Made by a program: the position numbers and the translations under genes
Source of the DNA: Minisyncoccia bacterium
Lineage (GTDB): Bacteria > Patescibacteriota > Minisyncoccia > UBA6257 > JAAZHW01
Direction: 5' to 3'
NCBI GenBank assembly: GCA_041550235.1
Contig: JBFEPE010000001.1
Location: forward strand, 8,003-72,002
Length of the DNA: 64,000 nucleotides
Notes under the pieces: model-generated
What the model saw: only the letters and a program-made list of their open reading frames with translations
Databases searched by the model: none
What the model was told of the DNA's origin: nothing
In this document: positions 21,518 to 49,040 of the stretch, piece after piece
Layout of the letters: each line of letters starts with the position of its first letter
Numbering within the stretch: the first letter of the stretch is position 1

Positions 21518-21682
21518 ATTTTTGTTTTTAGATTATTTTTTTCTTGCGACTGAATTGCTTCTATTCTAACAGATTTTTTTGGATTTTGCTAAAATCTCAC
21601 AATCGCTTTGTGTTTTTTATTTATATAGATATAATGATTTTATGTATCTCACTTCTTTAAAGTCTAATAGGATAAATAAGAA

Positions 21683-21840
21683 CACCCCCGTCTCAGCCAC
21701 GTTGAAATTGCGAAGCAATTTTTTACGTGGCGAGGCGAAACCCGCCTTCGTTAAAACTTCGGCGAGGCGAAACCCGCCTTCGTTAAAACTTCGGCGAGGC
21801 GAAACCCGCCTTCGTTAAAACTTCGGCGAGGCGAAGAAAA
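21683..21840 (+). repeat. GC-hairpin repeat followed by 3 tandem copies of a 32-bp unit (gaaacccgccttcgttaaaacttcggcgaggc) ending at the aspS start codon
   Basis: Direct reading. The last unit ends ...cttcggcgaggcgaagaaaaatATG. Confidence 0.8.
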
Positions 21841-21842
21841 AT

Positions 21843-23147: not shown

Positions 23148-23151
23148 AAAA

Positions 23152-24528: not shown

Positions 24529-24614
24529 TGAGAGGATGTTTTTTTTGGAGATAGAAATTATCCCCCCGCCCGCCTACGGCGGGCGGGGGGATTTAATGCT
24601 CTATCTAAATAAAT

Positions 24615-24648
24615 TTGACAAGGGCTTAAAATTGTGATTATATGTAAG
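24615..24648 (+). promoter_or_regulatory. Sigma70-like promoter (TTGACA-N17-TTATAT) preceded by GC hairpin
   Basis: ttgacaagggcttaaaattgtgattatatg. SD ggagg lies before the ATG at 24692. Confidence 0.45.
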
Positions 24649-24691
24649 GCAGAGACAATTTGTCTTAAAAAATATAAAATGGAGGTTTAAA

Positions 24692-25303
24692 ATGGAATTA
24701 AAAAAAGATTTACAGGATTTAAAAATTGAAGATCGTCTAAATCTCAATAGACAAAGTTGGGTTGAGTATTGGGAGAATCAATATCCTACCCTAAAAGGTT
24801 TTGTTAATTTTGAAAAGTTAGAGATTGGCAGAGAAAGATATCTGAAAGTGTTAGCAGAAATATTTAAATTAGAGGATATAATTCCAGAAGATTATCTATT
24901 TGAGGTAATTAAAATTAGGAGAGAGGACCTAATAAGCACATTAGAAGAATTAAAAAGTTTTTTGGATGGAGAAATTAATTATATGAGGGGTGAGGTGGAG
25001 ACTTATGGACTCAAATCGCAGGAACAATCTCATTTATTACTCTACTTAGAAGAAATTAAACATTTTGAAAAAAATCTGATAGAACTTCTATCTTTTGATG
25101 GTTTTGTTTATGGCAATCTATCCCCTTATGGAATTATGTTCAGAATTACGTTTTTTTATTTGAAAGCAATTGTTGAACTTAGATACAAAGATCCTTATAA
25201 AGATCTTGATGATAAATCTTTTATAGGATTTTACAAAAATTTTATTGATTTTAAAATGTGCTTTATAGAGAGTATTGTCAGTCAATATCATTTTTGGTAT
25301 TGA
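24692..25303 (+). CDS. Hypothetical protein (203 aa) between murC and murD
   Basis: SD aatggaggtttaaaATG. No family recognised. Confidence 0.5.
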   Translation: MELKKDLQDLKIEDRLNLNRQSWVEYWENQYPTLKGFVNFEKLEIGRERYLKVLAEIFKLEDIIPEDYLFEVIKIRREDLISTLEELKSFLDGEINYMRGEVETYGLKSQEQSHLLLYLEEIKHFEKNLIELLSFDGFVYGNLSPYGIMFRITFFYLKAIVELRYKDPYKDLDDKSFIGFYKNFIDFKMCFIESIVSQYHFWY

Positions 25304-25645
25304 AATAATGCTATTCGATAAATAATAATGGAGGATTCCGAAAGGGATTCTCTTTTTTTAGGAGTTAAAAGATGAGAGAAGGGCAAAGACGAGCCAAGCA
25401 TATTTTCACATTTTTTGTCATTTCTGCGAAGGCAGAAATCTAAAAAATGAGAAAATATGAGATTCTTCGCCGAAGGCGAACGGGCCGACGGAGTATTATC
25501 CGCCCGCCATAGGCGGATGTACCACCTATGGCGGACGGGAATGACAAGAGAGAGGTGGGAATGACAGGGGAGAGAATGGCAAATAAAGAATGCCTTTACT
25601 TTTTGTAATTATGATAACGATGTGTAAAATAATAATATATAAAAA

Positions 25646-27070
25646 ATGAATAAAAATAAATTTAAAAACAAAAAGGTTCTATTGATGGGATTGGGGATAT
25701 TGGGTGGTGGAGTAAATATCGCAAATTGGCTCATTTCACAAGGAGCTATTTTGACTATCACGGATTTAAAAAAGAGAAGCCAATTAAAAGAATCAATTCT
25801 CAAATTAAAAAATAAAGACAAGCAAAAATTTGTATTAGGAAAGCATAGAAAAGAAGATTTCATCAACAATGAAATTATTGTCTTAAATCAAGACATCCAA
25901 TTAAACAACCCCTTTTTAAAAATCGCCGAAGAAAATAATAAGCAAATAGAAGACGAACTCACTCTATTCTATAAAAATAGCCCATCAAAAAATATAATTG
26001 CCATTACCGGCACAAGAGGAAAAACAACCACATCAAATTGGATAGCCCATCTATTAAGAAAAAAATTTAAGGGAATAAAGGCAATAGGAAATTCTCCTGA
26101 AAATTCTTTGATAGGGAATATAAATAAAATAAAGAAGGGGGAGCCAATAATCATTGAATGCCCATCCTGTATTTTGGAGCAAGCAAACAGAGTCAAATTT
26201 TCTCCAAAAATAGCAGTCATCACAAATATTTATAGGGACCATTTAAATAGACATAATGGGAAAATTAGGGAATATGCCATTACAAAAGCAAATATATTTT
26301 TAAATCAGAGCAAGAGTGATCTTTTGATTTTGAACTATAAAAATAAATGGACGAACTTTTTTATCAAGATGAAACCAAGGGCGAAAATTTTATTTTTCTC
26401 TACTTCTAATTTGTCAACCCAATTGAATGGAATATTTATTAAAAAAGGGGAGATATTTTTCAGGGAAAATGGCAGGGAAAAATTTATTTTTCATACAAAG
26501 AAATTTGTTGAAAAATGGGGAAGTCATAATTTGGAAAATATTCTGCCAGCCATTTTAGTTTCTTTGAAAAATGAAATCTCTGTGAGTGATGTCGTGAGTG
26601 GGATTGATGAAATTCCTCAAATCAAGTTTAGGCAAGAATTAGTTTTTAATAATGGCAGATTAAAAATATATAACGATACGGCATCTACCTCTCCAGAAGC
26701 AGGCATTTCTGCTATAAAAAGATTTTATAATAATGGGAGTGGCGATAAGGTTGTTTTAATAACTGGTGGAACAGATAAGGATTTGGATTATTCAGAGTGG
26801 GCAAAGTATTTGAAAAAATATTTCAAAAAAGAAAATGTTGTTTTTCTTTCTGGGAGTGCGACTGATAAGATGAAGAAGGAGGTTGAATGGGAAAAAGTGA
26901 TTGAGTTTAATTCTCTGAAAGAATGTTTTGATAAGGCGATAAGAATGACTGGAGAAAATAATTCAGCAACTATTGTCTTTTCGCCCGCCTCAAAGTCATT
27001 TGAGAAATTTAATAATGAGTTTGATAGGGGAGAGCAATTTAATAATCTCATCAATAAATTAAGTATTTAA
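25646..27070 (+). CDS. murD: UDP-N-acetylmuramoylalanine--D-glutamate ligase
   Basis: KKVLLMGLGILGGGV Rossmann N-terminus. IAITGTRGKTTT P-loop. 474 aa. Confidence 0.85.
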   Translation: MNKNKFKNKKVLLMGLGILGGGVNIANWLISQGAILTITDLKKRSQLKESILKLKNKDKQKFVLGKHRKEDFINNEIIVLNQDIQLNNPFLKIAEENNKQIEDELTLFYKNSPSKNIIAITGTRGKTTTSNWIAHLLRKKFKGIKAIGNSPENSLIGNINKIKKGEPIIIECPSCILEQANRVKFSPKIAVITNIYRDHLNRHNGKIREYAITKANIFLNQSKSDLLILNYKNKWTNFFIKMKPRAKILFFSTSNLSTQLNGIFIKKGEIFFRENGREKFIFHTKKFVEKWGSHNLENILPAILVSLKNEISVSDVVSGIDEIPQIKFRQELVFNNGRLKIYNDTASTSPEAGISAIKRFYNNGSGDKVVLITGGTDKDLDYSEWAKYLKKYFKKENVVFLSGSATDKMKKEVEWEKVIEFNSLKECFDKAIRMTGENNSATIVFSPASKSFEKFNNEFDRGEQFNNLINKLSI

Positions 27071-27112
27071 ATAATTGCTAAATTATAAATATTTTATAGA
27101 ATTAAAATAATC

Positions 27113-27425
27113 GCCAATGTAGCTCCCGCCGAAGGCGGGCGAAGCAGTTGGTGGAGGTTGGAACATTACGAAGTTGTGTTTCAACCCGTGGTAAGGAGTA
27201 CATTTATTTATATTTTGCCAATGTAGCTCCCGCCGAAGGTGGGCGAAGCAGTTGGTGGAGGTTGGAACATTACGAAGTTGTGTTTCAGCCCATGGTAAGG
27301 AGTATATTTATTTTTATTTTGCCAATGTAGCTCCCTCCGTCGCCAAGGCTATGGAGGGGCATGCAGTTGGTGGAGGTTGGAACATTACGAAGTTGTGTTT
27401 CAACCCATGGTAAGGATTAGATATA
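27113..27425 (+). repeat. Three tandem ~104-bp repeats, each a scrambled tRNA-Thr-like fragment with an embedded GC hairpin
   Basis: Each unit starts gccaatgtagctc (the tRNA-Thr 5' end), carries cccgccgaaggcgggcga and ends c(c/a)tggtaagga(g/t)ta (anticodon loop + 3' stem). Units start at about 27113, 27217 and 27321. Confidence 0.75.
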
Positions 27426-27650: not shown

Positions 27651-27723
27651 GCCGTTGTAGCTCAGTTGGTAGAGCAACGCCGTGGTAAGGCGTAGGTCAG
27701 CGGTTCAAGTCCGCTCAACGGCT
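27651..27723 (+). tRNA. tRNA-Thr (anticodon GGT), island-borne copy
   Basis: gccgttg/caacggc acceptor. D-arm gctc-agttggta-gagc. Anticodon arm acgcc-gtGGTaa-ggcgt. T-arm agcgg-ttcaagt-ccgct. Discriminator T. Confidence 0.85.
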
Positions 27724-27748
27724 CCTTAAAAAGCATTACAGATTAGTA

Positions 27749-28660
27749 ATGTTTTTTATTATTATGGATATACAAATTTTAGTTCGTAAGTTTTGTGATT
27801 ATTCAACTTTTATTAAAGGATATACTCCGCAAACAATTAAGAGATATAGGCAGACAATTCGTTCCTATATCAAATTCGCTAATATCACTGAAATAGAGGA
27901 AGTGAATTTAGAGAATGTTCGTAATCTTTTTTATTCTGGCCGAACCCAAAGGAATTGGTCAACCAATACCTATATCTGCTACCATAAATCTTTAATTGTT
28001 TTCTTTCGTTGGTGTGTAAGTGAAGGCCACCTTCAATCCAATCCAGCCGAAGAGATTGAAGTGCCGAAACTGGAAAAGAAAATTCCGCCTAAATTAACCA
28101 AGCAAGAAACGATGAGGATATTGGAAGTAGTAGAAAATTATCCTTATATCAATGATTTTTTAAGGCAAAGAAATTATGCTATCTTTGCCACAATCATAAT
28201 GGCAGGATTGAGAAAAAATGAGATTATCAATTTAAGGTGTGTTGATATAGATATTGAAAATCTCTCTATTTTTATTCGGCAGGGGAAAGGAAGTAAGGAT
28301 CGGATTGTGCCAATCAATTACAAATTAGCTGAAATTTTAAGCAAATACGAAAAAGAAAGAAAAAGATTGAAAAAAACTTGCCCCGAATACTTTGTTTCTC
28401 TCTATAAAAATATGGGGATTAGGCATAATGGCTTAAAGTTATTGGTAGAACAAATATCAAAAGCATCGGCGATTAAATTCACTCTTCACAAATTAAGGCA
28501 TACCTTTGCCACAATGATGTTGGAGGGAGGATGTGATATTTATTCTCTCTCTAAAATGATGGGCCATAATGATATAAAAACAACCACAATTTATTTGGCC
28601 GCCAGCATAGAGCATTTAAGAGAACAGATGATTAAACACCCAATGGGAGATGTTTTGTAG
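27749..28660 (+). CDS. Tyrosine site-specific recombinase/integrase (XerC/D-like)
   Basis: C-terminal catalytic box HKLRHTFATMMLEGGCDIYSLSKMMGHNDIKTTTIYL (R..H-R..Y). 303 aa. Adjacent to the tRNA. Confidence 0.9.
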   Translation: MFFIIMDIQILVRKFCDYSTFIKGYTPQTIKRYRQTIRSYIKFANITEIEEVNLENVRNLFYSGRTQRNWSTNTYICYHKSLIVFFRWCVSEGHLQSNPAEEIEVPKLEKKIPPKLTKQETMRILEVVENYPYINDFLRQRNYAIFATIIMAGLRKNEIINLRCVDIDIENLSIFIRQGKGSKDRIVPINYKLAEILSKYEKERKRLKKTCPEYFVSLYKNMGIRHNGLKLLVEQISKASAIKFTLHKLRHTFATMMLEGGCDIYSLSKMMGHNDIKTTTIYLAASIEHLREQMIKHPMGDVL

Positions 28661-29400: not shown

Positions 29401-29592
29401 AAATCAATAATTTAATATGCCTAACCCCTATGATTATTCATAGGGTATGGCGATAAATCCATCCCTGTATTGAGCTCCTCGTTCAGCTTATCAGGGATGG
29501 TCATATTCGGAAACGGATATGGATGATCGCAAGATCGTCAGGTTGGCGGGGAGCTTTGTGTTCCAAGTCAACCACTAAAACCATCCCTAAAT
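29401..29592 (+). ncRNA. Candidate structured cis-regulatory RNA in the 5' leader of the 29593 membrane-protein gene
   Basis: Locally GC-richer. Hairpins ccctatga-ttat-tcataggg; ccatccctg...cagggatgg; tattcg-GAAA-cggata; gatc-GCAA-gatc; ggttg...caacc. A second ccatccc copy abuts the start codon. Confidence 0.4.
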
Positions 29593-30837: not shown

Positions 30838-33216
30838 ATGGATATAAAAATAGTAAATAAATATCTAAGTTCTCAAAAATTGAAAGCAGTGGAAATGCTT
30901 GATTTTGAAAATGGGAAAATAAAGTATTCTGATTTAATTAAACAATACAGGGAAATAAAGAATTTTAAAGGAAATGAAGAAATTGTTAGAGCTTATTTAT
31001 TATCCAAACTTTCTAATGAATTAGGATATAAGTTGGAAAATATTGAAATAGAAAAAGAATATGATATTGGTCGGCCAAAGGTTAATAAGCCAAGAATTGA
31101 TTTAATCGTCAGGGACGATGAAGGAAATGCTTTTCTATATGTTGAATTAAAAAGCCCTGAGGAATATGAAAAAAACAAGGATGAAGTAATTGAAAAACAA
31201 TTATTTGGCTTAACTTCTCAGGAAAAGGGACAAGGAAAAAATGTGAAATATCTTGTTCTCTATTCTTTTGAAATTATAAACGAAGAAATAAAAGATAGAG
31301 CAATTATTATTGATTATGAAAAATATTCATCTTTTGATAAGTGGGAAGAAGAAAGAAATTTTACTGATGAATTGCCAAAAAGATACGGTAAAGCCCAAAA
31401 AGAGCCATACAAAAAAGGTGGCAAAAAAGACTTGAGAGCCGATTTTGCTCCCGAAGAATTAGAAGCAAAAAGAAAAAATCTTCATAATGTTTTATGGGGT
31501 GGGGGCGGAACAGACGATAACGAAATCTTTGCCTCTTTGGTAAGAATTATTTTAGCTAAAATTCAAGATGAAACTGAAAGAAAAAATGGTGAAAAATATG
31601 AATTTCAGATTTTTTCTTTTCAAGACGGGGATAGCTTTGAAAGTAATGAAGAAATTTTTGAAAGAATAAATAAACTTTACAGAAGGGCTTTGAAGGAAAA
31701 AATGTATATTACCGATGAAAACAAGATAGAAAAATCTTTTGTTATTGATGAAAACAAGTTTTCTATTAGTAAATTAAAATATACTATTTCCGAGTTAGAA
31801 GAATATTCTTTTGTTGATGGAAAAGATAGCTTTAATGGAAAGGATATTTTAGGCCAATTTTTTGAGGGTATTGTCCGAGACGGCTTTAAGCAAAATAAAG
31901 GGCAATTCTTTACTCATTCTAATATTGTCCAATTTATCCTTTATGCCCTTCAATTAGATAAATTGGCGATAGAAAGAATAAATAAAGATAAAGAAATTCC
32001 TTATTTGATTGATCCTTCGGCTGGAAGCGGAACATTTTTGATTGAGTATATGAATTTTATTACTCAAAACATTAAATACAAACAAAAAGATAAATTAGAT
32101 AATAACCGAGATATTGAAGATAAATTCAATGACTGGTTTATGCCTTATAATAGAGAGAATAAATGGGCTAAAGATTTTATCTATGGCGTAGAACATAACT
32201 TTGATTTAGGAACTGCCTCAAAAGTTAATATGATTTTACACGGAGACGGCTCAACAAATATTTTTGTTAAAGACGGACTTCTTCCTTTTAATTACTATAC
32301 CAAAGACAAAGGAGTTAATATTCTTGATGATGAGAAAGAAGATAAAGAATATTTTGATAAGAATATCAACGGAAAATTTGATGCTATTATTACTAATCCG
32401 CCTTTCTCGGTGGATTTAGATAAAGATACTAAAAAAACACTAAAAGATAGTTTTGTTTTTGGGGATAAGAAAAATTCTGAAAATCTTTTTGTTGAAAGGT
32501 GGTATCAATTATTAAAAGAGAATGGAAGATTGGGAGCAGTCTTGCCTGAAAGTGTTTTTGATACTACGGAAAATAAATATATTAGATTATTTTTATATAA
32601 ATATTTTAAAATAAAGGCGGTTGTTTCTTTGCCTCAATTAGCTTTTCAGCCCTATACTTCCACTAAAACCAGCTTGCTTTTTGCCCAAAAGAAAACCCAA
32701 GAAGAAATTAAAAAATGGGATGAATTATGGGCGACTTATTCTAAGGATTATAGTCAATTAAAAACAAGGGTAGAAAAAGAGGTAGAACATTTTATCAAAG
32801 GAAAAGAAATTCAAAAGAGTTGGGCTATTGCTAAAGAAACAGAGAAAAGAAGAAAGGATAATGTTCTTTATCTTCTTAATCAAGTTATAGATAGAAAGAT
32901 TGATTTAGATTTATCTCTTCAAGAATTGGTTGAAAAATATCAAGACGAAATAATAGATCTGTTGAAAATAGAGAAAGAAACAGATGTTTTTGGCTTTGTT
33001 AATGCTTGGTGGGTATTTGGTGCTGTTTCTAAAGAATTGGATTATCCAATCTTTATGGCCGAAGTTGAAAATGTTGGTTATAAAAGGACAATAAGAGGAT
33101 TAAAACCAATGCCAAATGATTTATTCAGAAGGAATGAAAATGGCGAAATTATGATTGATGATAATAAAAAAGAAACCGCTTTAGATTTTATGAGGTCGGA
33201 TGTGGAGTGGGATTAA
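30838..33216 (+). CDS. Fused restriction-modification enzyme: N-terminal PD-(D/E)XK nuclease + gamma-class N6-adenine DNA methyltransferase (Type IIG/IIB A-subunit-like)
   Basis: PRIDLIV...FLYVELK (D...ExK). MTase motif I LIDPSAGSGTFL. Motif IV AIITNPPFS. HsdM-like VVSLPQLAFQPYTSTKTSLLF. 792 aa. Confidence 0.8.
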   Translation: MDIKIVNKYLSSQKLKAVEMLDFENGKIKYSDLIKQYREIKNFKGNEEIVRAYLLSKLSNELGYKLENIEIEKEYDIGRPKVNKPRIDLIVRDDEGNAFLYVELKSPEEYEKNKDEVIEKQLFGLTSQEKGQGKNVKYLVLYSFEIINEEIKDRAIIIDYEKYSSFDKWEEERNFTDELPKRYGKAQKEPYKKGGKKDLRADFAPEELEAKRKNLHNVLWGGGGTDDNEIFASLVRIILAKIQDETERKNGEKYEFQIFSFQDGDSFESNEEIFERINKLYRRALKEKMYITDENKIEKSFVIDENKFSISKLKYTISELEEYSFVDGKDSFNGKDILGQFFEGIVRDGFKQNKGQFFTHSNIVQFILYALQLDKLAIERINKDKEIPYLIDPSAGSGTFLIEYMNFITQNIKYKQKDKLDNNRDIEDKFNDWFMPYNRENKWAKDFIYGVEHNFDLGTASKVNMILHGDGSTNIFVKDGLLPFNYYTKDKGVNILDDEKEDKEYFDKNINGKFDAIITNPPFSVDLDKDTKKTLKDSFVFGDKKNSENLFVERWYQLLKENGRLGAVLPESVFDTTENKYIRLFLYKYFKIKAVVSLPQLAFQPYTSTKTSLLFAQKKTQEEIKKWDELWATYSKDYSQLKTRVEKEVEHFIKGKEIQKSWAIAKETEKRRKDNVLYLLNQVIDRKIDLDLSLQELVEKYQDEIIDLLKIEKETDVFGFVNAWWVFGAVSKELDYPIFMAEVENVGYKRTIRGLKPMPNDLFRRNENGEIMIDDNKKETALDFMRSDVEWD

Positions 33217-34672
33217 AAAAACTATGGGAAACAACCAAACTTCAGAAAAAATAAAAATAGAGATAAAAGATGTTATGCCTGACTTTAAAGAGCATTTATC
33301 ATTAAAAGGAAATGATAGAGTGTTTTTTTCTGGTAAATTTGGAATTGGAAAGAGTTATTTCTTAAAAGAATTTTTTAGATTAGGAGAGGAAAACTATGAG
33401 GTTTTTTATCTATTACCAACGAGGTATCAAATAAGTCCCAATGAAGATATTTTAGATTTTATAAAATACGATGTTTTAGTTGATTTAATAAATAAAAATA
33501 AAGAAATTTTTAAAGGCAACAATTTTAATAGCTTTATAGATCTAAAAAGATTGTTTTATATTTGGGGCAAGGATAATTTTTACGAGATTTTTAAAAAGGG
33601 GTTAGATTTTATTCCAAAATTAGGCAAACCTTTAAAAGAAGTCGTTAATTTAATTGATAATTTTAGAAATTTCAAATACGAAGTTGAATTAGGCGACAAG
33701 GGTTTTGTAGATAATTACATCAAGGAAATAAAGTCCAAAGATATAGTTGAAAGCGATCATTTAAGTTATTTATTAACTGAAAAAATAAACAATTTAAAAG
33801 GAGAAAAAGAAAGTGTTTTGATAATAGACGATTTAGATAGAATTGACCCAGACAATATTTTTAGAATTTTAAATATTTTTTCTGTTTATTTCAACGAAGA
33901 TAATTCTGAAATGCCTAATAAATTTGGTTTTGATAGGATTATTTTTGTTGGCGACCATAAAAATATAAGAAGTATTTTTAACCATAAATATGGAGAAAAT
34001 ACCGATTTCAGAGGTTATTTCAATAAATTTTTTAGATATAAAATTTATGAATTTGATAACGACAAGGCTATAGAAAATGCTGTAAGTATATTGATAGATA
34101 GTATGAAAGAAGTTGGAATAAATGTATCAAAAATTTTTGAAAAATTAGGATACGGCAGGCTTTTATTGGAAGATGTTTTAAAGAGATCAATAAATTTAAA
34201 ATCAAATAAAGAAAAGGTTAATTTAAGGCAACTTTTAAATGTTTATCTTTTTCCAAGTCTTCATTTAAAAGATAACAAATACTATAACGATCAATTTCTC
34301 TCTATTGCTAAGAAAATGATCCAATTTATAGATTTATCAATTAAGTTTTTAATTGATATTTTTGGTGGAGATGAAAAATTTTTGATAGAAGTTTTGAATA
34401 AGATAATTCTTGAATCTGGATTTTATAAAAATCAAAATTATAGAGATGACCTCTATAATCATTATTCAAGAGCTATATTAAGTGAGATTTTAAATAAAAA
34501 TTTTGTAAAAGATAGTAATAATCCTGCGGAAGAAAAGTGGGAAGAAAATTTAGGTAATGTTATAGGGAATGTGGCCGGAGGCCCTGAATTAAAAGTATTT
34601 TATACCTTGTTAATTAAATACTTAGAAAGTGGTAAATATAAAAAGGATAGTATTAGAAATTATGATTTATAG
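33200..34672 (+). CDS. KAP-family P-loop NTPase
   Basis: Walker A FSGKFGIGKSYFLKEF. KAP-type Walker B VLIIDDLDRIDPDNIF. 490 aa. Overlaps the preceding gene by 17 nt. Confidence 0.65.
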   Translation: MWSGIKKTMGNNQTSEKIKIEIKDVMPDFKEHLSLKGNDRVFFSGKFGIGKSYFLKEFFRLGEENYEVFYLLPTRYQISPNEDILDFIKYDVLVDLINKNKEIFKGNNFNSFIDLKRLFYIWGKDNFYEIFKKGLDFIPKLGKPLKEVVNLIDNFRNFKYEVELGDKGFVDNYIKEIKSKDIVESDHLSYLLTEKINNLKGEKESVLIIDDLDRIDPDNIFRILNIFSVYFNEDNSEMPNKFGFDRIIFVGDHKNIRSIFNHKYGENTDFRGYFNKFFRYKIYEFDNDKAIENAVSILIDSMKEVGINVSKIFEKLGYGRLLLEDVLKRSINLKSNKEKVNLRQLLNVYLFPSLHLKDNKYYNDQFLSIAKKMIQFIDLSIKFLIDIFGGDEKFLIEVLNKIILESGFYKNQNYRDDLYNHYSRAILSEILNKNFVKDSNNPAEEKWEENLGNVIGNVAGGPELKVFYTLLIKYLESGKYKKDSIRNYDL

Positions 34673-34681
34673 AGAATTAAA

Positions 34682-36124
34682 ATGCTAAAAAATTTTACAA
34701 CACAATTTAGAGATTTAGGCAAAGAAACATCAATTAGATTTGATTTCAGTTTTATTGATTTTCAAAATACTTTTTTAGTTAAAGATTATTATTCTTTTAG
34801 TGATTTATTTGAAATTAAGGAGAACAACAGAAAGGATATTTCTGAAATAAAGGATGATTTTTACTATTCAGAAATAGGAAATGTTAATAAATTGGGAGAG
34901 GTTGATCCAGTAAAATTAAATTTTGATGAAAAGTCTGAAGAATATTTAGATTATTTTAAGAAAATAGAGAGGGGAGATATTATTGAGGTCGGGGAAGGGG
35001 AAATTCTAATATCAAAAGTTCGTCCTAATCTAAAGAAATATGTTTTTATTGATGATAAAAATAAAGAATATTTTTATACTTCTGCTTTTATTCACTTAAA
35101 ACCAAAAAAATTAAATAAAGTTTTATATTATTCATTAAGAAGTTTATTTTTTGATAATTTAATAGCTATTTCAAGACAGGGCAAAGGTTATCCTACTTTG
35201 AAAAATGAAGATTTATATTACTTAAAATTCAATAAAGAAATGATTGATAAATTAGAAAGTAAAGAAAAAGATATAAATAGCAAAATAATCCCCAATGAAA
35301 ATAAAATTAAGGAATTGAAAGACAAAATAGAAAAACCGCAGGATATAATCAATGAAGTTTTTGCTAATGAATTTAGTTTTGATTTAAAAAAATTTGAGGA
35401 ATTAAAGAAAGAAAATATTTTTTCTGTTAATTTTAGTGATTTTTCTAATTACCACAGCCTAAGATTTGATTTTAAAAACAAGAAATTTTTTCCAATTTTT
35501 GAAGATATTATTTCAAAACTTGATACAATTAGACTAAAAAATATTGTTTTAGAAGATCCGCTTTATGGAGCAAATGAGCCTGCTATTGATGGTGTTGTTG
35601 GTAATGATATAAGATATGTAAGAATAACTGATATAGATGATTTGGGGGAATTAACAAATAACGAATGGAAAACCGCCGAAAATATAGACGAAGTTTATTT
35701 ATTAAAAGATTTAGATTTTCTTTTTGCGAGAAGTGGTAATACGGTCGGTAAAAGTTTTTTATATAATTCAAATAAACACGAAAAATCTATTTTTGCTGGA
35801 TATTTTATAAAATTTAAAATTGATTTTAAAAATTTAAATCAATTATTTTTCCTTTATTATTCAAAATCTTTTATTTTTGAATTATGGAAAAATGGAATTG
35901 TAAGAGTAAAGGGGCAACCAAATATAAATGCTAACGAATATTTAGAACTTCAAATTCCTAATATCCCATTATCTAAACAAAAAGAAATAGTTAAAAAAAT
36001 AAAATCTCGATTAGATAGACAAGAAGAAATCAAAAAAGAAATAGAAAAAGAGAGGGATAAGATAGATAAAATAATTGAAAATGCTATAATACAAACACTT
36101 GAGGGCTATAAGCCCCTGCTCTAA
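34682..36124 (+). CDS. Type I/IIB restriction-modification specificity (HsdS-like) subunit with two target-recognition domains
   Basis: Two TRD signatures (ISRQGKGYPTLKNEDLYYLKF; ARSGNTVGKSFLYN). C-terminal coiled-coil spacer KQKEIVKKIKSRLDRQEEIKKEIEKERDKIDKII. 480 aa. Confidence 0.7.
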   Translation: MLKNFTTQFRDLGKETSIRFDFSFIDFQNTFLVKDYYSFSDLFEIKENNRKDISEIKDDFYYSEIGNVNKLGEVDPVKLNFDEKSEEYLDYFKKIERGDIIEVGEGEILISKVRPNLKKYVFIDDKNKEYFYTSAFIHLKPKKLNKVLYYSLRSLFFDNLIAISRQGKGYPTLKNEDLYYLKFNKEMIDKLESKEKDINSKIIPNENKIKELKDKIEKPQDIINEVFANEFSFDLKKFEELKKENIFSVNFSDFSNYHSLRFDFKNKKFFPIFEDIISKLDTIRLKNIVLEDPLYGANEPAIDGVVGNDIRYVRITDIDDLGELTNNEWKTAENIDEVYLLKDLDFLFARSGNTVGKSFLYNSNKHEKSIFAGYFIKFKIDFKNLNQLFFLYYSKSFIFELWKNGIVRVKGQPNINANEYLELQIPNIPLSKQKEIVKKIKSRLDRQEEIKKEIEKERDKIDKIIENAIIQTLEGYKPLL

Positions 36125-36152
36125 AATTCGGGGTGAGGGTTTTTGTAAAAAT

Positions 36153-37706
36153 ATGAAATTATTATTAGCTGGGCCAGGGACAGGAAAAACAACAAAAATA
36201 AAAGAGATAATTAACTCCAAATCTGAGAAAGATAGGGTTCTTGTTATATCTTTTACTAATGCTACGGTTCAAGATCTTTTAGCCGATTTTCGCAAAGATG
36301 AAATTAACATAGAAGAAAAAGATTGTAGCACTTTACATAAATATGCTCTACGAATTAACCACCAAAAAAAATTACATATTTTGAATGAGTTTGAAAAAAA
36401 GATATTAGAATTTTATGCTAAAAAATTTAATTCTAATTTTGATGATTTATGTAGAACGCTTGGCTGTATAACCTTTGATCAAATGATCATACAAACATCC
36501 GAATATATAAAGTCAAATCCTTTATATCTAAACGAAATTATTGATGATATTGATTTGTTTATTGTTGATGAATACCAAGATTTCAACCTTATTGAAAGAA
36601 ATCTTATTGATCTAATAGCACAAAAAGCAAAAGATGTTTTTGTACTCGGCGATGATGACCAATGTATCTATGATTTCAAGGACGCAAATTCCGATGGCAT
36701 TATTGAGTTGTATAATTCAAAAAATGTTGAAAATGTTTCGCACGATCATATTTGTTATAGATGCCCCGATAAAATAGTCAGTGCTTGTTTTAATCTAATA
36801 AATAAAAACCAAAAGAGAATTAAAAAAGAGTGGAGGCCAAGTGAAAAAGAGGGAGATCTGATATTTAATCAGATATTAACACAACAGGAAACATCAGAAT
36901 ATATTTTGAATGAGATAAATAAAATTAAACAAGATGACCCCACTTCTTCTATTATGATATTATCTTCAGTAAGGTTTGCCGTTGAGGATTTATTAAATTT
37001 TTTTGATGATAACAAAATGGATTATGTTGATTTTTGGAAACCCAAAATGGATTTAGAAAAATTAAAAAGAATTTGGGAAATAAAAATCGTTTTTGGCGAA
37101 AAAAAATTATTAAATCTTTTATTCCTAATACAATTAAGCATTAAAGGAAAAAATAGCCACATAAAAAAGTGTCAAAAAATAATAAATGAAAATTTGGATT
37201 TTGATGATTTATTAGATTTTTCAAAAGAAAACAATTTATTGGGAGATGAAGTTATTAAATTATTTGATACTAAAATATCCTTAGAAGACATTCTAAAGAT
37301 TAAAAAATATGAATTCTTAAGCGATCACATAAGAGAAGAGTTTCTAAAAGAAGATTTAGAAAAATTGACAAAAATTGTATCGGAGCCAGTAGAATTTAAT
37401 CCAAGTGGAATAAATGTATCTTCTATACACAAATCAAAGGGACTACAGGCAGACTATGTTTTTATATTGGGGGTTGTTGAGGGAATAATACCTAATTCTC
37501 TAAAGGGATTAGATACGATTGAGGCTCAAAGAAGATTATTATTTGTTGGAATGAGTAGGGCAAAAAAGAGGCTTTATCTCGTCTCTACCGCTGAATGGGA
37601 TGGCAAATATGTTCATAGGGTTGATAAAAACAAATTTAAGTTTGATCCAAAATCAAGAAAACACTTAGCAAGCTCATCAATTTTTATTTCAGATCTTGAT
37701 TTATAA
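36153..37706 (+). CDS. UvrD/Rep-like superfamily 1 helicase (short, ~517 aa; listed ORF begins 36099)
   Basis: Walker A LLAGPGTGKTT. Motif II FIVDEYQDFN. Motif III VFVLGDDDQCIY. Motif V SSIHKSKGLQADYVFI. Motif VI LLFVGMSRAKKRLYL. Confidence 0.8.
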   Translation: MKLLLAGPGTGKTTKIKEIINSKSEKDRVLVISFTNATVQDLLADFRKDEINIEEKDCSTLHKYALRINHQKKLHILNEFEKKILEFYAKKFNSNFDDLCRTLGCITFDQMIIQTSEYIKSNPLYLNEIIDDIDLFIVDEYQDFNLIERNLIDLIAQKAKDVFVLGDDDQCIYDFKDANSDGIIELYNSKNVENVSHDHICYRCPDKIVSACFNLINKNQKRIKKEWRPSEKEGDLIFNQILTQQETSEYILNEINKIKQDDPTSSIMILSSVRFAVEDLLNFFDDNKMDYVDFWKPKMDLEKLKRIWEIKIVFGEKKLLNLLFLIQLSIKGKNSHIKKCQKIINENLDFDDLLDFSKENNLLGDEVIKLFDTKISLEDILKIKKYEFLSDHIREEFLKEDLEKLTKIVSEPVEFNPSGINVSSIHKSKGLQADYVFILGVVEGIIPNSLKGLDTIEAQRRLLFVGMSRAKKRLYLVSTAEWDGKYVHRVDKNKFKFDPKSRKHLASSSIFISDLDL

Positions 37707-44417: not shown

Positions 44418-45344
44418 ATGAAAGATCTATTTGAACAATTTATAAAACAGCAAGAATATGTTGAAAGGAAAAGAAAAAAGACGATAGAAAATTATCGGCA
44501 GAATTTTAATTTATTGTTTGGCTTTAAGCCTGATTTGAAATTGGAAGATTTAACCGAAGAAACAATGATTGATTTCTTTGAGTATCTTGATACAAGGGAA
44601 AGAAGGGTCGGAAAGAAAATGATTGTTAGAAAAATTAAAAATTCCAGTATCGCCACAATAAGAGGAAAATTAGAGGTATTTTTTAGGTGGTTAGTTGATA
44701 GGGAGCATATCAAATCTAATCCATTTGAAAAAATACCATACCCGGAAGTTTCCTACACAAGCAAAGAGGCTTTCACGAAAGAGGAATTTGATAAAATTTT
44801 TATAAACATCGTTAGAGATATTAAATGGGTCAATGATTTTTTGCGAAAAAGAAACACAGCAATGATAATGACTTTAGTATTAACTGGGATAAGAAGAGAA
44901 GAGTTATTAGAATTAAAGCTGTCTGATATTGATTGGAAGAATAAAAAAATAACAATTAGAGATGAAACTTCTAAATCTAAAAGAACAAGAACTATTCCTA
45001 TGTCGCCAGATTTGAGGCCATTTTTAGAGGATTATTTAATAACCAGAACTAATAAGAAAAATAGTTTTCTTTGGGTCAATGGCAGAGATGAAAAATTTAC
45101 TGAACACGGCTGGAAGCATCTTGTTAAAAAACTAAAAGAAGAAACAGAAACTAATTTCCGCACCCATAGATTTAGACATACATTTGCTTGTAATTATTAT
45201 CGGCAGAGAAAAGATCCGGTTGGATTACAAAAAATGATGGGACATCAAGATATTAAAACTACTTTTAAGGTATATTTGCGATCCATAGATGATGATGATT
45301 TAACAAAAGAAATGAATAAATTTAAGATTTCTAAGTTTTATTAA
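44418..45344 (+). CDS. Tyrosine site-specific recombinase/integrase (second copy, divergent from 27749)
   Basis: HRFRHTFACNYYRQRKDPVGLQKMMGHQDIKTTFKVYL. N-terminal SAM-like core-binding domain. 308 aa. Confidence 0.9.
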   Translation: MKDLFEQFIKQQEYVERKRKKTIENYRQNFNLLFGFKPDLKLEDLTEETMIDFFEYLDTRERRVGKKMIVRKIKNSSIATIRGKLEVFFRWLVDREHIKSNPFEKIPYPEVSYTSKEAFTKEEFDKIFINIVRDIKWVNDFLRKRNTAMIMTLVLTGIRREELLELKLSDIDWKNKKITIRDETSKSKRTRTIPMSPDLRPFLEDYLITRTNKKNSFLWVNGRDEKFTEHGWKHLVKKLKEETETNFRTHRFRHTFACNYYRQRKDPVGLQKMMGHQDIKTTFKVYLRSIDDDDLTKEMNKFKISKFY

Positions 45345-45550: not shown

Positions 45551-45592
45551 ATGGTAAGGAGTAGGTCAGCGGTTCAAGTCCGCTCATTGGCT
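45551..45592 (+). pseudogene. 3' half of the split tRNA-Thr(GGT) gene
   Basis: atggtaa-ggagt-aggtc-agcgg-ttcaagt-ccgct-cattggc-t. Complements the 5' half at 27457-27494 (gccaatg/cattggc, actcc/ggagt). Confidence 0.75.
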
Positions 45593-45599
45593 CTTTTAG

Positions 45600-45625: not shown

Positions 45626-45636
45626 TTTTTCTTTTA

Positions 45637-45716
45637 AAAATATGTTAAAATATATACATATTTAGAGGGCAAAAGCCCCTGCTCTGAATCTTTGGGGTAG
45701 GGGTTTTAATATAAAT
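45637..45716 (+). repeat. Copy 1 of a ~50-bp direct repeat plus hairpin cassette (second copy at 48282-48371; partial third at 36101-36152)
   Basis: aaaaatatgttaaaatatatacatatttagagggcaaaagcccctgctct...ggggtaggggtttt...atATG. Confidence 0.75.
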
Positions 45717-46928
45717 ATGAACAAAGATATATCTAAAATTTTTATACCAAAACTTACATATAATGAGTTATCTTTTGTTAAAGGGAAGGGGGTTCCAGCA
45801 ATAATAATGGATGCTTATTTAGTTGCTTATAGAAAAAAAGTTGCTGATAAAATCAGACAGGAAACAAGTTTGTTTATCATTGATCCTAATACCAATTATT
45901 TTGTTGATGATTATTGTAAGAAAAAACCTAGTTTTAAAAGTTTATCAACTACCCCAAAGAAACCATATAAAATAGATGAATTATTGACCGATGAAGGAGT
46001 TAGAAAATACGAAATGGTTTTAAATAATATTAGAAATCAGATAAATAACAATGCTGGATTAATAATATTGCCTTATTTATATATGGACAGCATAGATGAT
46101 GTTAAATTTAATTTAAATTTAACGATGATTAGTGATGGTTTGAGAGTTATAAAAGATAATAAAATAAAATACCCGACATATGCAATGATTAATATAGGTA
46201 ATAATATTTTTAATGATTATTCTAAAATAGATTTCTTAATAGGAAGATATTTTGTTGATTTCAAAAATGAATTAGACGGATATTTTGTAATGATAAACAA
46301 TTTTGATTGTCGCAGAGCTAGTAAAGAGGAGTTATTGGGATTAGCATATTTAACTTTTCGTTTATCAGGAAAAAAGGATCTTTATTTTTTGAAGATGGGA
46401 GATTATGGAGAAATTCTTTGTAGTATAGGTGCTACTGGTTATAGTAGTAGTTTGGCTGGAGGCGAAACTTTTAATGCAGACAATTTATCTAAGAAAAAAA
46501 TAGGAAAGATTTTTGGTAGGAATCATAAGGAAATAACTTATGTAGCTGAATTATTTATTTATCTAAATGATGAGATTTTAAAGAAGATAAAGTATTCTTG
46601 CGATTGTGAAGTTTGTAAAGGCAATATCCCAAGCAGCTGGAATGATACGAGGATGCATTTTCTCAATAGAAAATTAATGGCGATAGAGGAATTAAATAAG
46701 ATAGAAGATGGTGAAAAAATTAAATTTATGATTTCTAAAATAAATAATTCTATTGAACAAGTCGCTGAATATAATTCAAAATTTGCCCCCTTGTCAATTA
46801 AAGCAGATTTTCTTTTGAAATGGAAGCAAGTTTTAAAAGAAGTAATAAATTGGAAAGACGATGACTCAAAGAAAGTTGATACGATTGATTTAGATAAAAT
46901 TATAGAGGAGGCACGAAAATCTCAATGA
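45717..46928 (+). CDS. Hypothetical protein (403 aa) with tRNA-guanine-transglycosylase-like motifs
   Basis: VMINNFDCRR (cf. TGT catalytic xMFDCV) and SCDCEVCKG (CxCxxC zinc subdomain) followed by H 15 aa later. Otherwise unrecognised. Confidence 0.45.
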   Translation: MNKDISKIFIPKLTYNELSFVKGKGVPAIIMDAYLVAYRKKVADKIRQETSLFIIDPNTNYFVDDYCKKKPSFKSLSTTPKKPYKIDELLTDEGVRKYEMVLNNIRNQINNNAGLIILPYLYMDSIDDVKFNLNLTMISDGLRVIKDNKIKYPTYAMINIGNNIFNDYSKIDFLIGRYFVDFKNELDGYFVMINNFDCRRASKEELLGLAYLTFRLSGKKDLYFLKMGDYGEILCSIGATGYSSSLAGGETFNADNLSKKKIGKIFGRNHKEITYVAELFIYLNDEILKKIKYSCDCEVCKGNIPSSWNDTRMHFLNRKLMAIEELNKIEDGEKIKFMISKINNSIEQVAEYNSKFAPLSIKADFLLKWKQVLKEVINWKDDDSKKVDTIDLDKIIEEARKSQ

Positions 46929-47371
46929 ATATAGTCCCCGATACTAATTTGTTATTAAAGGGATTATTGTTTAGGGGTGATGCTAGACAAATAATCAATT
47001 TAGCTTATTCAAAAAAAATAAACCTTTATGGGAGTAAGGGCTCTTTTGAGGAGATAAAGAGAGTCGTTTATTATAAAAATTTTAAAAAATATCTTGAAAA
47101 AGAAATTTATACGCCAGAGAAATTAATTGTTTCTTATAGATCATTAATTAATATAGCTACAATAAACAAAAATTATAAAGATTTGAAAGTTGTAAAAGAT
47201 GATCCAGACGATGATGAATTCTTAAAAATAGCAAAGACAATAGAATCGCAGATCATAATATCTAGCGATAAGCATTTAAGAAGAATCGAAAAATATGATG
47301 ATATCAGAATAATAGAGCCAGAGATTTTTATTAAAATTTACCCTAAAATATTAGGCAGAAAATTCATTTAA
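46925..47371 (+). CDS. PIN-domain nuclease
   Basis: MNIVPDTNLLL (first acidic residue), DDPDDDEFL, ISSDKHL. Start overlaps the upstream gene (ATGA). Confidence 0.7.
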   Translation: MNIVPDTNLLLKGLLFRGDARQIINLAYSKKINLYGSKGSFEEIKRVVYYKNFKKYLEKEIYTPEKLIVSYRSLINIATINKNYKDLKVVKDDPDDDEFLKIAKTIESQIIISSDKHLRRIEKYDDIRIIEPEIFIKIYPKILGRKFI

Positions 47372-48022
47372 TATTTTTTTGTTTAATATTGATTCAGCCG
47401 CTAAATTAAATTTATATTTGTTTAGTGCTTTTTTTGGTTTAAGATTTGTGATCTCAAGTCCTTTATTTTCAAGATTTAATATTATTAATCCAATTTCATG
47501 TTTTTCTAACAATTTCTTATCTATAAGGTGTTCCTGAGATGATGGCATAGCTAAATATACTTTATTAGCAAATGATTTATATCTATTGGCTTGAAGTATG
47601 CCTCTTTTCCAGTTTTTTAGTTTAGCTTCTATAGCAATTATCTCCTTAGCAATGGGCATCCACCCATTTATTTTATAATAATATTGATCGTCAATTATTT
47701 TAATGAAATTATCATCTTGTAGTTTTTTTAAATATTTATACTTCAGTGTATTTCTTGATATTTTTAATCTATTGATAATAAATTCTATATCCACCTTTTT
47801 TCTTTTTCCCATTTCTGGCAAAAGATCAAATATTCTAAAATAATCTTCATTTTCGATTGATTTATATTGTTTATGATTCTTTCTTATTAAACAATTATTA
47901 GAGTCGAGCTTAAATAACACTAAATCAGCTATACCATAACCAACCCCAACTTCCCTTTTGGTTAGATAGCCATTTTTAGACAACTCTTTTTCTAGCAAGG
48001 AGACAAAATATTTTTCTGTCAT
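47351..48022 (-). CDS. PD-(D/E)XK nuclease-family protein (Mrr/Hjc-like core)
   Basis: GYGIADLVLF...IAIEAKLKNWKRGILQANRY shows a D / E-x-K / Q-x-x-R-Y arrangement. 223 aa. Confidence 0.5.
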   Translation of the reverse strand: MTEKYFVSLLEKELSKNGYLTKREVGVGYGIADLVLFKLDSNNCLIRKNHKQYKSIENEDYFRIFDLLPEMGKRKKVDIEFIINRLKISRNTLKYKYLKKLQDDNFIKIIDDQYYYKINGWMPIAKEIIAIEAKLKNWKRGILQANRYKSFANKVYLAMPSSQEHLIDKKLLEKHEIGLIILNLENKGLEITNLKPKKALNKYKFNLAAESILNKKILNEFSA

Positions 48023-48281
48023 ATTAATATTATACTATAATAATAGATTTAATGACATACTTACTCTTAAATAGTGAAAGACGGCGAGCAATCTTGTCGC
48101 TTTGTTGATTTAATAATACCATAATTAAAGATAATATAAAGTCTAAAATTCCAGAAGTAATTATTTAGAGAATTAAGCATTCAAAAATTTAGTATTTTTA
48201 ATATTATATAGATTGCTTTTTATTGTCAGATTTTTTATTTATCAAATTTGCCATAATAATACAGGCAAATTTATTTTATTT

Positions 48282-48371
48282 AAAAATATGTTAAAATATA
48301 TAAATATTTAGAGGGCAAAAGCCCCTGCTCTATTTGTGTCGAGATGGGGCTTTTATTATTAAATTAAAAAT
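48282..48371 (+). repeat. Copy 2 of the direct repeat plus hairpin cassette
   Basis: aaaaatatgttaaaatatataaatatttagagggcaaaagcccctgctct; perfect stem aaaagcccc/ggggctttt, then attattaaattaaaaatATG. Confidence 0.75.
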
Positions 48372-48677
48372 ATGAATTATTATAATTTAGAAAACAGAAA
48401 AATATTGGGTGGCATTCTTGTTGTTATCTCATTAGTAATCTTTTTCTCAATTATTGGTGGAAATAATAATATAGCATCCAATCAAATTAAAAATGACAAT
48501 CAATTTAGAAGTGAATTAAAAAATTGTTTAGAAAAGGTAGATGAAATATACAATACAGCAAAATTAATGAGATCGTCAATTTATGAGCAATACAATTTTT
48601 CTAAGAAAGAGAAGGATGAATATGTAAGGATAATGGAAGAATCAAGGCAAAAAGATGTGGGGCAATGTTATGAATAA
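48372..48677 (+). CDS. Small membrane-anchored hypothetical protein (101 aa)
   Basis: N-terminal TM ILGGILVVISLVIFFSIIGG. Confidence 0.4.
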   Translation: MNYYNLENRKILGGILVVISLVIFFSIIGGNNNIASNQIKNDNQFRSELKNCLEKVDEIYNTAKLMRSSIYEQYNFSKKEKDEYVRIMEESRQKDVGQCYE

Positions 48678-48701
48678 TATGAATTATTATATCAAAACAA
48701 T

Positions 48702-48932: not shown

Positions 48933-49040
48933 TTTTATGAGTTTTTTGAATAAAATTTTGTTTTAAGTGGCTTGATTTATGGGATATATAATATAATATA
49001 AGAACACTCATAGTGTTATGAGGTTTGTTATAATTAGAAA

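Follow-up and report, generated by a model that had tools for sequence, protein, structure and literature searches.

RAT/terminator attenuator leaders are bound by BglG/SacY-type antiterminators. Putative mobile promoters (PMPs) were defined by Matus-Garcia, Nijveen & van Passel (2012, PMC3488235) as non-coding stretches of 50-100 nt, at least 80% identical, that precede non-homologous genes within the same genome. We analyzed a 64-kb stretch of DNA (hereafter the window) from a Paceibacteria bacterium with a tiny genome, where a short hairpin repeat precedes three unrelated modules of a mobile defence island. Copies 2 and 3 of this repeat fall within the PMP definition, with 98.1% identity over 53 nt, the -10 included, and unrelated downstream genes. 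Copy 1 lies below the PMP threshold, since it shares no more than the 22-nt core and a 3' arm that has diverged. Tentatively, and at slightly under an even chance in our judgement, we read the element as a portable promoter-proximal leader, spread by duplication or recombination, whose terminator-like hairpin would both insulate and attenuate each module.

A repeated unit ahead of three island genes

Three copies on the + strand share the core GAGGGC-N3/4-AGCCCCTGCTCT. After each core comes a G-run/T-run arm that folds back to pair with AAAGCCCCTGCTCT, and 8-25 nt beyond it an ATG (Table 1). The recurrent hairpin cassette before three island genes that an earlier note had described was recovered, as was its perfect 9-bp stem in copy 3 (AAAAGCCCC/GGGGCTTTT, 48316-48324 / 48346-48354); the 53-nt extent of the copy 2/3 repeat, with its extended -10, had been missed there. 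The 12-mer AGCCCCTGCTCT occurs exactly three times in the window (36111, 45674, and 48320), and the 22-mer AGAGGGCAAAAGCCCCTGCTCT exactly twice (45664 and 48310), where shuffles expect 0. GGGC-N3-6-GCCCC was found within the window only at the three element sites, and the rest of the 64 kb contained no further copies of the motif. A one-mismatch match to AGCCCCTGCTCT at 20783 was rejected as chance (inside coding DNA, 0.15 expected). All copies are co-oriented with the downstream gene and lie directly upstream of its start codon (<=25 nt from ATG), and GAGGGC is invariant in all of them despite its position outside the terminator stem. Copies 2 and 3 constitute a 53-nt duplication, promoter included, identical at 52 of 53 positions; the likeness stops right after CTGCTCT, the promoter being common to both and the 3' arm not.

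Table 1. Coordinates of the element copies and of the island's attachment features in the window
Feature	Position	Strand	Remarks
Copy 1 extended -10-like TGCTATAAT	36082..36090	+	native S-subunit codons N-A-I-I
Copy 1 core GAGGGCTATAAGCCCCTGCTCT	36101..36122	+	encodes non-homologous S-subunit C-terminal tail; stop codon 36122-36124
Copy 1 3' arm GGGGTGAGGGTTTTT	36130..36144	+	helicase ATG at 36153
Copy 2 53-nt repeat unit	45633..45685	+	TGTTAAAAT promoter 45643-45651, spacer, 22-nt core 45664-45685
Copy 2 3' arm TTGGGGTAGGGGTTTT	45692..45707	+	16-bp hairpin with 45672-45687; TGT-like gene ATG 45717
Copy 3 53-nt repeat unit	48279..48331	+	promoter 48289-48297, core 48310-48331
Copy 3 3' arm GAGATGGGGCTTTT	48341..48354	+	pairs with AAAAGCCCC..CTC or GCTCTATTT; 101-aa gene ATG 48372
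tRNA-Thr(GGT)	27651..27725	+	left attachment end of island holding copy 1
Xer-like integrase	27749-28660		adjoins tRNA-Thr(GGT)
Right attachment repeat: native tRNA-Thr 3' part, displaced	45551..45593	+	100% identical to L022 tRNA

An extended -10 (TGnTAWAAT) sits 10-13 nt 5' of every core, and in copies 2 and 3 it is the TGTTAAAAT of the common 53-nt unit. In copy 1 the promoter scan returned TAGATA-16-TATAAT with TG; this -10 is made of native S codons, shortly past which the S homologues terminate, and may be fortuitous. TGnTAWAAT occurs 26 times in the window, 12 of them outside called ORFs; two more lie in unannotated RNA/intergenic stretches, which gives 14 intergenic sites, several at plausible promoter distance from start codons. 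When the window was compared to a public relative (L022, MAG JBFFCO01), the TG and the -10 hexamer were kept and the 22-nt core showed 0 changes, while 4 of 31 other upstream positions were changed. Two other promoter readings were rejected: a leaderless promoter 3' of the hairpin has acceptable spacing only in copy 3 (TAAATT-N6-ATG), and a sigma-54 promoter in GGGC...TGCT has spacing that is 1-2 nt off and varies among copies.

The three downstream genes proved to be as previously described: a GajB/UvrD-like helicase after copy 1, a protein with TGT fold after copy 2, and a small putative membrane protein of 101 aa after copy 3, with an N-terminus hydrophobic by eye. Exact-protein look-ups for the helicase, the TGT-like protein, and the PIN, 524-aa, and 150-aa proteins returned no match. 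Copy 2 begins 40 nt downstream of the right attachment repeat; it is preceded by the tRNA remnant, and copy 3 by a divergent gene, neither by an ORF 3' end. The 53-nt units are direct repeats flanking a 2.6-kb TGT-like/PIN/223-aa module. Of the two tyrosine recombinases in the island, one (44418-45344) lies 300 nt upstream of copy 2. The host genome also holds about 30 other GC-rich intergenic hairpin repeats, which belong to several families and in some cases directly precede start codons.

Folding of the putative leader and its possible regulation

The same long hairpin is predicted to be possible in all three copies, with the 5' arm AAAGCCCC..CUC. RNAalifold on four sequences yielded a common long hairpin of 11 pairs in which differing 3' arms pair with one 5' arm; 0 of the 11 pairs changed on both sides, the 5' arm being invariant in these four sequences. 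Copy 2 folds at -22.5 kcal/mol (z -3.5 to -4.5 vs. shuffles) with a 16-bp stem and only U4, copy 3 at -18 kcal/mol (z -2.2 to -2.4), and copy 1 at -12.5 kcal/mol (z -0.15 to -0.4), where a shuffled sequence is equally stable. The U-tracts after the hairpins are short (4-5 U), and a simple terminator scan listed the copy 3 hairpin as terminator-like (48327-48350) and did not list copy 2. A smaller 5' hairpin (GAGGGC-loop-GCCCCU, -7 to -9 kcal/mol), with a loop that varies between AAAA and UAUAA, is predicted to exclude the long hairpin in copies 1 and 2. In the minimum-energy fold of copy 3 it coexists with a terminator-like hairpin, GCUCUAUUU/AGAUGGGGC plus U4. Unrelated low-GC phage contigs carry nearly the same AAAGCCCCTGCTCT...GGGGCTTTTTT hairpin, always followed by a T-run and AT-rich sequence, and by this layout the phage hairpins appear shaped like a plain terminator.

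Under the portable-leader reading, a sigma-70-type extended -10 would start transcription a few nt before the conserved 22-nt segment, and the nascent RNA is predicted to fold first into the small hairpin GGGC-loop-GCCC. The downstream G-run would then pair with AAAGCCCCUGCUCU into a 12-16-bp hairpin with U4-5, 8-25 nt before the AUG, a predicted intrinsic-terminator shape. This hairpin would keep transcription that arrives from the S operon (copy 1) or the tRNA (copy 2) from running on into the module and would also end part of the module's own transcripts early, so that each defence or accessory module would be transcribed autonomously, at a low level, and with a structured leader at its 5' end. 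The non-coding unit would have been duplicated or recombined onto the heads of unrelated modules, and because the copies are repeats they would double as breakpoints during module exchange. Of the three natures proposed in the earlier note, the terminator-promoter junction cassette comes closest, the order being promoter, hairpin, gene.

To place a constitutive terminator directly after a promoter would be wasteful if read-through were not regulated, and a simple terminator does not explain the strict conservation of GAGGGC outside the terminator stem. The former consideration favours a regulated switch, in which the element is a shared cis-regulatory RNA: the 5' hairpin GAGGGC-loop-GCCCCU would be an antiterminator competing with the terminator for AAAGCCCCUGCUCU, a protein or ligand would stabilize one of the folds, and the three island modules would be switched on together, e.g. 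on phage attack. GAGGGC mimics the 3' arm of the terminator (GGGGY), a classic antiterminator design; the 5' hairpin comes first in co-transcriptional order, with the exclusion predicted for copies 1 and 2, and the core is unchanged relative to L022 next to the 4/31 changes just upstream. However, the coexistence of both hairpins in the minimum-energy fold of copy 3 implies no switch there, and the varying loop argues against a loop-specific binder. An Rfam 15 covariance-model search gave no gathering-score match, and even at E <= 10 the matches were noise, none lying consistently over the core. The hairpin is absent upstream of the homologous TGT-like genes in L179 and L188, covariation was not seen, no candidate regulator was identified, and the family, judged by the searches described below, appears essentially confined to one lineage. 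We consider the antitermination leader unlikely. The shared regulatory RNA proposed earlier keeps the exclusive folds of copies 1 and 2 in its favour and has the Rfam, covariation, and TGT-like homologue results against it.

Two more specific RNA candidates were rejected. A preQ1 or other riboswitch before the TGT-like gene found no Rfam match even at E <= 10 and lacks an A-rich tail after the P1 helix. For an sRNA seed with trans targets, the sole complement in the window was a 10-mer within a gene (7591-7600), at chance level.

Module boundaries, relatives, and mobility

The 480-aa ORF overlapping copy 1 has PADLOC matches to Type I specificity subunits (E 1e-16 to 1e-17), and the overlap with the last codons of hsdS (..LEGYKPLL and stop) that had been noted before is present in it. 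About 40 S-subunit homologues terminate at ...EIIEKAI(K) and a stop, and the window protein adds the element-encoded QTLEGYKPLL before its own stop; copy 1 provides the last ~10 codons of the S gene. In relatives, 3-4 nt separate the S stop codon from the start of the next gene, which is not the same at different loci. The S|helicase junction is formed by the element and absent from S homologues and their loci, and copy 1 sits at the variable junction of an MTase-X-S-Y system. The suggestion that the helicase gene was appended via the element holds in substance, since S homologues end earlier and the next gene varies by locus. From its sequence, copy 1 is an older copy that has diverged and become joined to the S gene at its end. 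Copies 2 and 3 might have been remnants of the 3' end of an hsdS gene, but this idea was rejected: S homologues lack the core, and the reading frame upstream of both copies is closed.

Compared to homologous S|Y junctions, copy 1 resembles a ~62-nt insertion that lengthens the ORF in frame, and Rickettsia palindromic elements also extend ORFs in frame. This, together with the other hairpin repeats of the host genome, would suit a selfish REP-, RPE-, or MITE-like miniature palindrome inserting into AT-rich spacers and gene ends, its place before start codons being incidental. We give such a palindrome little credence. There are only three copies in the 64 kb, in a single orientation relative to the gene and all <=25 nt from ATG; neither terminal inverted repeats nor target duplications were seen at the copies, and no RAYT, IS200/IS605, Y1, or other transposase was found among the scanned window ORFs. 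A mobile palindrome would carry both arms, but here only the 5' arm is conserved, and copies 2 and 3 have the promoter in common and not the 3' arm.

Among public genomes (185,579 species) there was one real copy only, the L022 orthologue of copy 3; 241 million metagenome records held no real copy, and viral contigs gave 0 matches to GAGGGCN{3,4}AGCCCCTGCTCT. Except for L022, the matches to this pattern in genomes (73) and metagenomes (104) were chance matches in GC-rich coding DNA. A looser viral scan returned generic terminators and chance matches only, and phage blastn only AT-rich promoter-like noise. The earlier note had named absence of the motif elsewhere as counting against its cassette, and this is largely what was found, the window having no more copies and the public scans one orthologue.

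In relatives, module boundaries lie at the element edges or within the element. L022 homology to the window begins at 48279, the left edge of the copy 3 unit. In L178, a near-identical strain contig (99.3%), homology begins at 48325, at CTGCTCT inside the copy 3 core, and an ABC-transporter operon is found in place of the promoter and 5' core. The closest TGT-like homologue, in L188, retains TGTTAAAAT and CATATTTAGAGGG, so the promoter and the beginning of the leader are native to the TGT-like module and were copied from there.

These boundaries bear on whether the hairpin unit is a recombination site, an attachment or crossover site for a site-specific recombinase or for RecA acting on the 53-bp repeat, with modules inserted or swapped through it, each bringing a promoter or arriving behind one. 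Both the copy 2/copy 3 repeat and the L022 homology begin at 48279, and the similarity of the two copies ends after the same CTGCTCT at which L178 homology begins. Further, direct 53-nt repeats around a 2.6-kb module are expected from Campbell-type integration, copy 1 is exactly at the variable MTase-X-S-Y junction, and two tyrosine recombinases are at hand. Yet boundaries would also coincide if rearrangements did no more than leave a working promoter intact, and a derived breakpoint within the core is seen in L178 only. The sequence left of copy 2 is not homologous to that left of copy 3 in L022, so simple site integration needs further events. The element has no pair of inverted recombinase arms around a 6-8-bp spacer, and the integrases are Xer-like and stand beside the tRNA-Thr attachment repeats, where their role is already explained. 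A recombination site is, in our view, quite improbable.

Very improbable is the stronger form, that the unit is a true crossover site with its core at or near CTGCTCT, by which Paceibacteria islands exchange defence and accessory modules behind a ready-made promoter. An integron-like logic, with a promoter-carrying 5' site and Xer-like recombinases or short-homology recombination, would follow from this crossover-site reading and is just as doubtful. Against the TIGR02249 integron-integrase model the integrases scored 111.2 and 49.4 bits (cut-off 265); their best matches are Xer-type, also below the Xer cut-offs. Neither of the attC cores RYYYAAC/GTTRRRY is present around the hairpin, the nearest sequence, GTTAAAA in the promoter, failing at the last position. 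An attC-like site, as had been proposed, is not borne out by Xer-like integrases, missing cores, and copies at gene 5' ends. A dif/Xer site was also rejected: TATGTTAAA, which resembles the E. coli XerD arm, has no partner arm or spacer and was treated as chance in AT-rich DNA.

Comparison with known systems

If the portable-leader reading is true, the locus is a small, clean example of a reduced CPR genome wiring new defence modules with a copied ~50-nt promoter/leader, a terminator-like hairpin isolating each module from its neighbours. It would also account for island module boundaries that coincide with the repeat, and would aid transcription-unit annotation in Paceibacteria, whose promoters and terminators are poorly known.

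The likeness to lambda nut/boxB, a small hairpin with GC stem and A-rich loop just after a mobile-element promoter and before a terminator, is only formal; here boxA is missing, the loop varies between copies, and an N-like protein was not identified. The element shares with REP/REPIN and Rickettsia palindromic elements that it is a short hairpin repeat in a compact AT-rich genome with one copy extending an ORF, and differs from both in its very low copy number, fixed orientation, single conserved arm, and the lack of any RAYT-type transposase seen. Like integron attC, it is an imperfect hairpin at the boundaries of exchangeable modules with tyrosine recombinases nearby; unlike attC, it stands at the gene 5' end, bears a promoter, and has neither R''/R' core sites nor a cassette array.

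With promoter-proximal intrinsic terminators and attenuator leaders such as RAT, the element has in common the order of its parts (a promoter, a short 5' hairpin that is conserved and overlaps with the 5' arm of a hairpin plus U-tract, and the gene) and, in copies 1 and 2 though not in copy 3, predicted folds that exclude each other. These leaders differ in that our element has no RAT sequence similarity, is not conserved across genera, and was seen with no CAT/PRD or other antiterminator gene. It departs from PMPs in that the recycled stretch also includes the 5' arm of a hairpin resembling a terminator. The element looks like a recycled promoter plus terminator-like leader rather than like anything of a new class.

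Copies and architecture of the repeat

The earlier note had placed a hairpin cassette at three sites (copies 1, 2 and 3, near 36101, 45664 and 48310), and re-reading of the window found these sequences, on the forward strand, as described. The 22-mer AGAGGGCAAAAGCCCCTGCTCT occurs in the window exactly twice, at 45664 and 48310 (none expected in shuffles), and the 12-mer AGCCCCTGCTCT exactly three times, at 36111, 45674 and 48320. A fourth 12-mer candidate at 20783, with one mismatch and in coding DNA, was rejected as chance. The pattern GGGC-N3-6-GCCCC was confined to the three copy sites, and fuzzy searching of the remaining window turned up no degenerate copy. The stretch common to copies 2 and 3 is longer than previously given: it has 53 nt with an identity of 52/53 (45633-45685 and 48279-48331) and takes in an extended -10, TGTTAAAAT. 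The order of parts is the same in all copies. The extended -10 comes first, 10-13 nt ahead of the core (GAGGGC-N3/4-AGCCCCTGCTCT); after another 7-14 nt, which vary, follows a 3' arm made of a G-run ending in four or five T, and AT-rich DNA then leads up to the ATG.

TGnTAWAAT was found 26 times in the window, 14 of them intergenic and two at leaderless-mRNA spacing; judged by its placement, it behaves like a genuine promoter motif in the host genome. Two strong extended -10 motifs (TGTTATAAT and TGGTATAAT, at 49026-49043 and 14077-14099) end 6 and 11 nt ahead of start codons, distances suggesting that this organism has mRNAs that are leaderless or nearly so.

Between the window and L022, the related contig with the copy 3 orthologue, 4/31 positions upstream of the core had changed, with TG and TAAAAT intact, and 0/22 within it. 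One position differed in the 3' part, weakening the short hairpin and neutral for the long one. The contrast suggests that the core is under constraint, though on small counts.

Features of the island, the repeat copies and the background (window positions unless a contig is named)
Feature	Position	Detail
tRNA-Thr	27651-27725	island left boundary; Xer-like integrase next
Displaced native 3' part of tRNA-Thr	45551-45593	
Methyltransferase/S-like gene pair	30838-36124	
Same pair, contig L181	5629-10929	
Same pair, contig L183	3175-9023	
Copy 1 extended -10	36082-36090	TGCTATAAT
Copy 1 3' arm		GGGGTGAGGGTTTTT
Copy 2 3' arm		TTGGGGTAGGGGTTTT
Copy 3 3' arm		GAGATGGGGCTTTT
Copy 1 fold		-12.5 kcal/mol; z about -0.3
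Copy 2 fold		-22.5 kcal/mol; z -3.5 to -4.5
Copy 3 fold		-18 kcal/mol; z about -2.3
Three-gene TGT-like module	45717-48022	
Homologous module, contig L179	6004-8300	
Homologous module, contig L188	143-1791	
Background hairpins	3835-12162, 21137-27367, 54012-63846	
Example background hairpins	6177-6218, 12118-12162, 21137-21225, 24557-24603, 54012-54061, 59596-59641	

Folding and distribution

The unlike 3' arms of the three copies each pair with one invariant 5' arm, AAAGCCCC..CUC. RNAalifold, given the three copies and the L022 orthologue, recovered this long hairpin, with no compensatory changes in it. In stepwise folding a small 5' hairpin, GGGC/GCCC, is the first helix; it competes with the long hairpin in copies 1 and 2, and in copy 3 it is compatible with a second, terminator-like hairpin. 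Low-GC phage contigs carry a near-identical AAAGCCCCTGCTCT-loop-GGGGCTTTTTT followed by AT-rich DNA, the shape of a plain terminator, so the 3' two-thirds of the element have a generic intrinsic-terminator shape.

Searching 185,579 species genomes for GAGGGCN{3,4}AGCCCCTGCTCT gave 73 matches, of which only L022, the copy 3 orthologue, was not a chance match. The remaining genome matches, in GC-rich coding DNA, were rejected, as were all 104 in metagenome contigs. Viral contigs had 0 matches, and Rfam gave none at gathering score or at E <= 10. A homologous module of TGT-like, PIN and 223-aa genes (L179, 57% identity) is without a leader of the copy 2 type. The closest TGT-like homologue (L188, 60%) retains TGTTAAAAT and a 13-nt identity, CATATTTAGAGGG, without the hairpin; promoter and leader start are thus the TGT-like module's own. 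The hairpin is restricted to this lineage. That the element is a regulated antiterminator RNA, a reading whose strongest point is the invariant GAGGGC, is unlikely given the copy 3 geometry, the variable loop, the absence of covariation and the homologous loci without hairpin.

About 30 GC-rich perfect hairpins in several repeat families occupy core-genome spacers of the host, whose genome has 33% GC, some between ribosomal-protein genes and some right before start codons, a placement therefore normal in this host. None lies inside the island (27.7-50.7 kb), and the family of copies 1-3 is the island's own small version of them. One background type is CCCCCGCC-GTAG/TTCG/GAAG-GGCGGGGG; start-codon-adjacent hairpins ...CTTCGGCG(A/G)GGC(G/A)AAGAAAAATATG stand at 21843, ~56361, ~56786 and ~63874, and three tandem 32-nt units at 21729-21835. 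The background looks like a REP-like population, of which we know no description for Paceibacteria. That the island element itself is REP- or MITE-like seems improbable.

The island and its junctions

All three copies lie in a variable region between 27.7 and 50.7 kb; at about the latter point core genes return (jag-like, yidC, yidD, rnpA, rpoA, L17, S9). The only related genome record found was a Candidatus Paceibacteria MAG. The island has replaced the 3' half of tRNA-Thr, whose native 3' part, with 100% identity to L022, is now 17.9 kb downstream. Tandem ~104-nt repeats of a unit made of a tRNA fragment and a hairpin precede tRNA-Thr (27113-27416); the locus (compare L022 177-357) is an integration hot spot scarred by repeated events. 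The island also holds a LOOT RNA (RF03000, 86.6 bits, 29418-29539) between a 219-aa and a 323-aa ORF of unknown function. Outside it, the 23S rRNA (15016-19428) measures 4413 nt vs 2925 nt for the model, hence large insertions, and repeats a 108-nt segment internally (15345-15451 vs 17800-17905, 95%).

Copy 1 is preceded by a Type I/IIG-like methyltransferase, a KAP NTPase and a specificity-subunit-like (S) gene, and followed by a GajB-like helicase, a PD-T7-5-like gene and a GmrSD/HEC-05 gene. About 40 inspected S homologues end in ...EIIEKAI(K); the window protein has an extra QTLEGYKPLL, coded by copy 1. What comes next in relatives varies, being the gene of a serine recombinase or of a HARE-HTH protein, and starts 3-4 nt past the S stop, so ~62 nt (36091-36152) are extra at a variable junction, which supports the earlier proposal that the helicase block was joined to the S end via copy 1. 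The pairing of the methyltransferase (HSDR_N_2, N6_Mtase, Eco57I) with the S-like gene is conserved, but what lies between them varies: KAP NTPase in the window, SduA_C in L183, nothing in L181. Past the S-like gene follow, by locus, the helicase block, a large serine recombinase or HARE-HTH.

Copy 2 leads into a 403-aa TGT-fold protein and then a PIN gene, and its 53-nt unit and that of copy 3 form direct repeats either side of the 2.6-kb TGT-like module. Two further genes, PIN_3 and a divergent one of ~223 aa, complete this conserved module. The best Foldseek matches of the 403-aa protein (AF2 pLDDT 88) are archaeosine TGT 1iq8, QTRT 7ovo and TGT 2pwu, and CBASS Cap10 9ntn is also listed; the protein has an invariant CxCxxC...H motif. 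Nothing in Pfam, NCBIfam, PADLOC or the PDB sequences matched it, and its homologues number only ~20, most of them in Patescibacteria-type metagenomes; the module is a candidate for a new nucleic-acid base-exchange/toxin system.

Copy 3 precedes a 101-aa orphan. Homology with L022 starts at 48279, the left edge of the copy 2/3 repeat. In L178, a near-identical strain contig (99.3% identity over the 101-aa gene), it starts within the core, at CTGCTCT, and an ABC-transporter operon stands in place of the promoter and the core's 5' part. That operon is of the liv type; the L178 junction (6329-6430) reads ...caatGCTCTGCTCTATTTG, with GCTCT in tandem, vs ...AGCCCCTGCTCTATTTG in the window (48279-48374). 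An exact 15-nt direct repeat, ATATGAATTATTATA, lies at the start region of the 101-aa gene and right past its stop (48370-48384 and 48677-48691). The helicase start ATATGAAATTATTATTA (36151) resembles it. Chance may account for these similarities (~2 matches with <=2 mismatches expected in shuffles).

Proposed role of the repeat unit

As these junctions show, rearrangement boundaries fall at the repeat unit. A dedicated recombination site would fit them, and so would a repeat that is spared or used by homology. The attC-like site of the earlier note fails as an integron attC on integrase, core motifs and position; we regard a recombination site as improbable, and a crossover site that carries a promoter and serves to exchange modules as slightly more so. 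Our preferred, still tentative reading is a portable, promoter-proximal leader; its terminator-like hairpin would insulate and attenuate each module, and the unit may have spread through duplication or recombination. The repeat is real and restricted to its lineage, and among known kinds of element it is best filed as a reused (mobile) promoter plus terminator-like leader.
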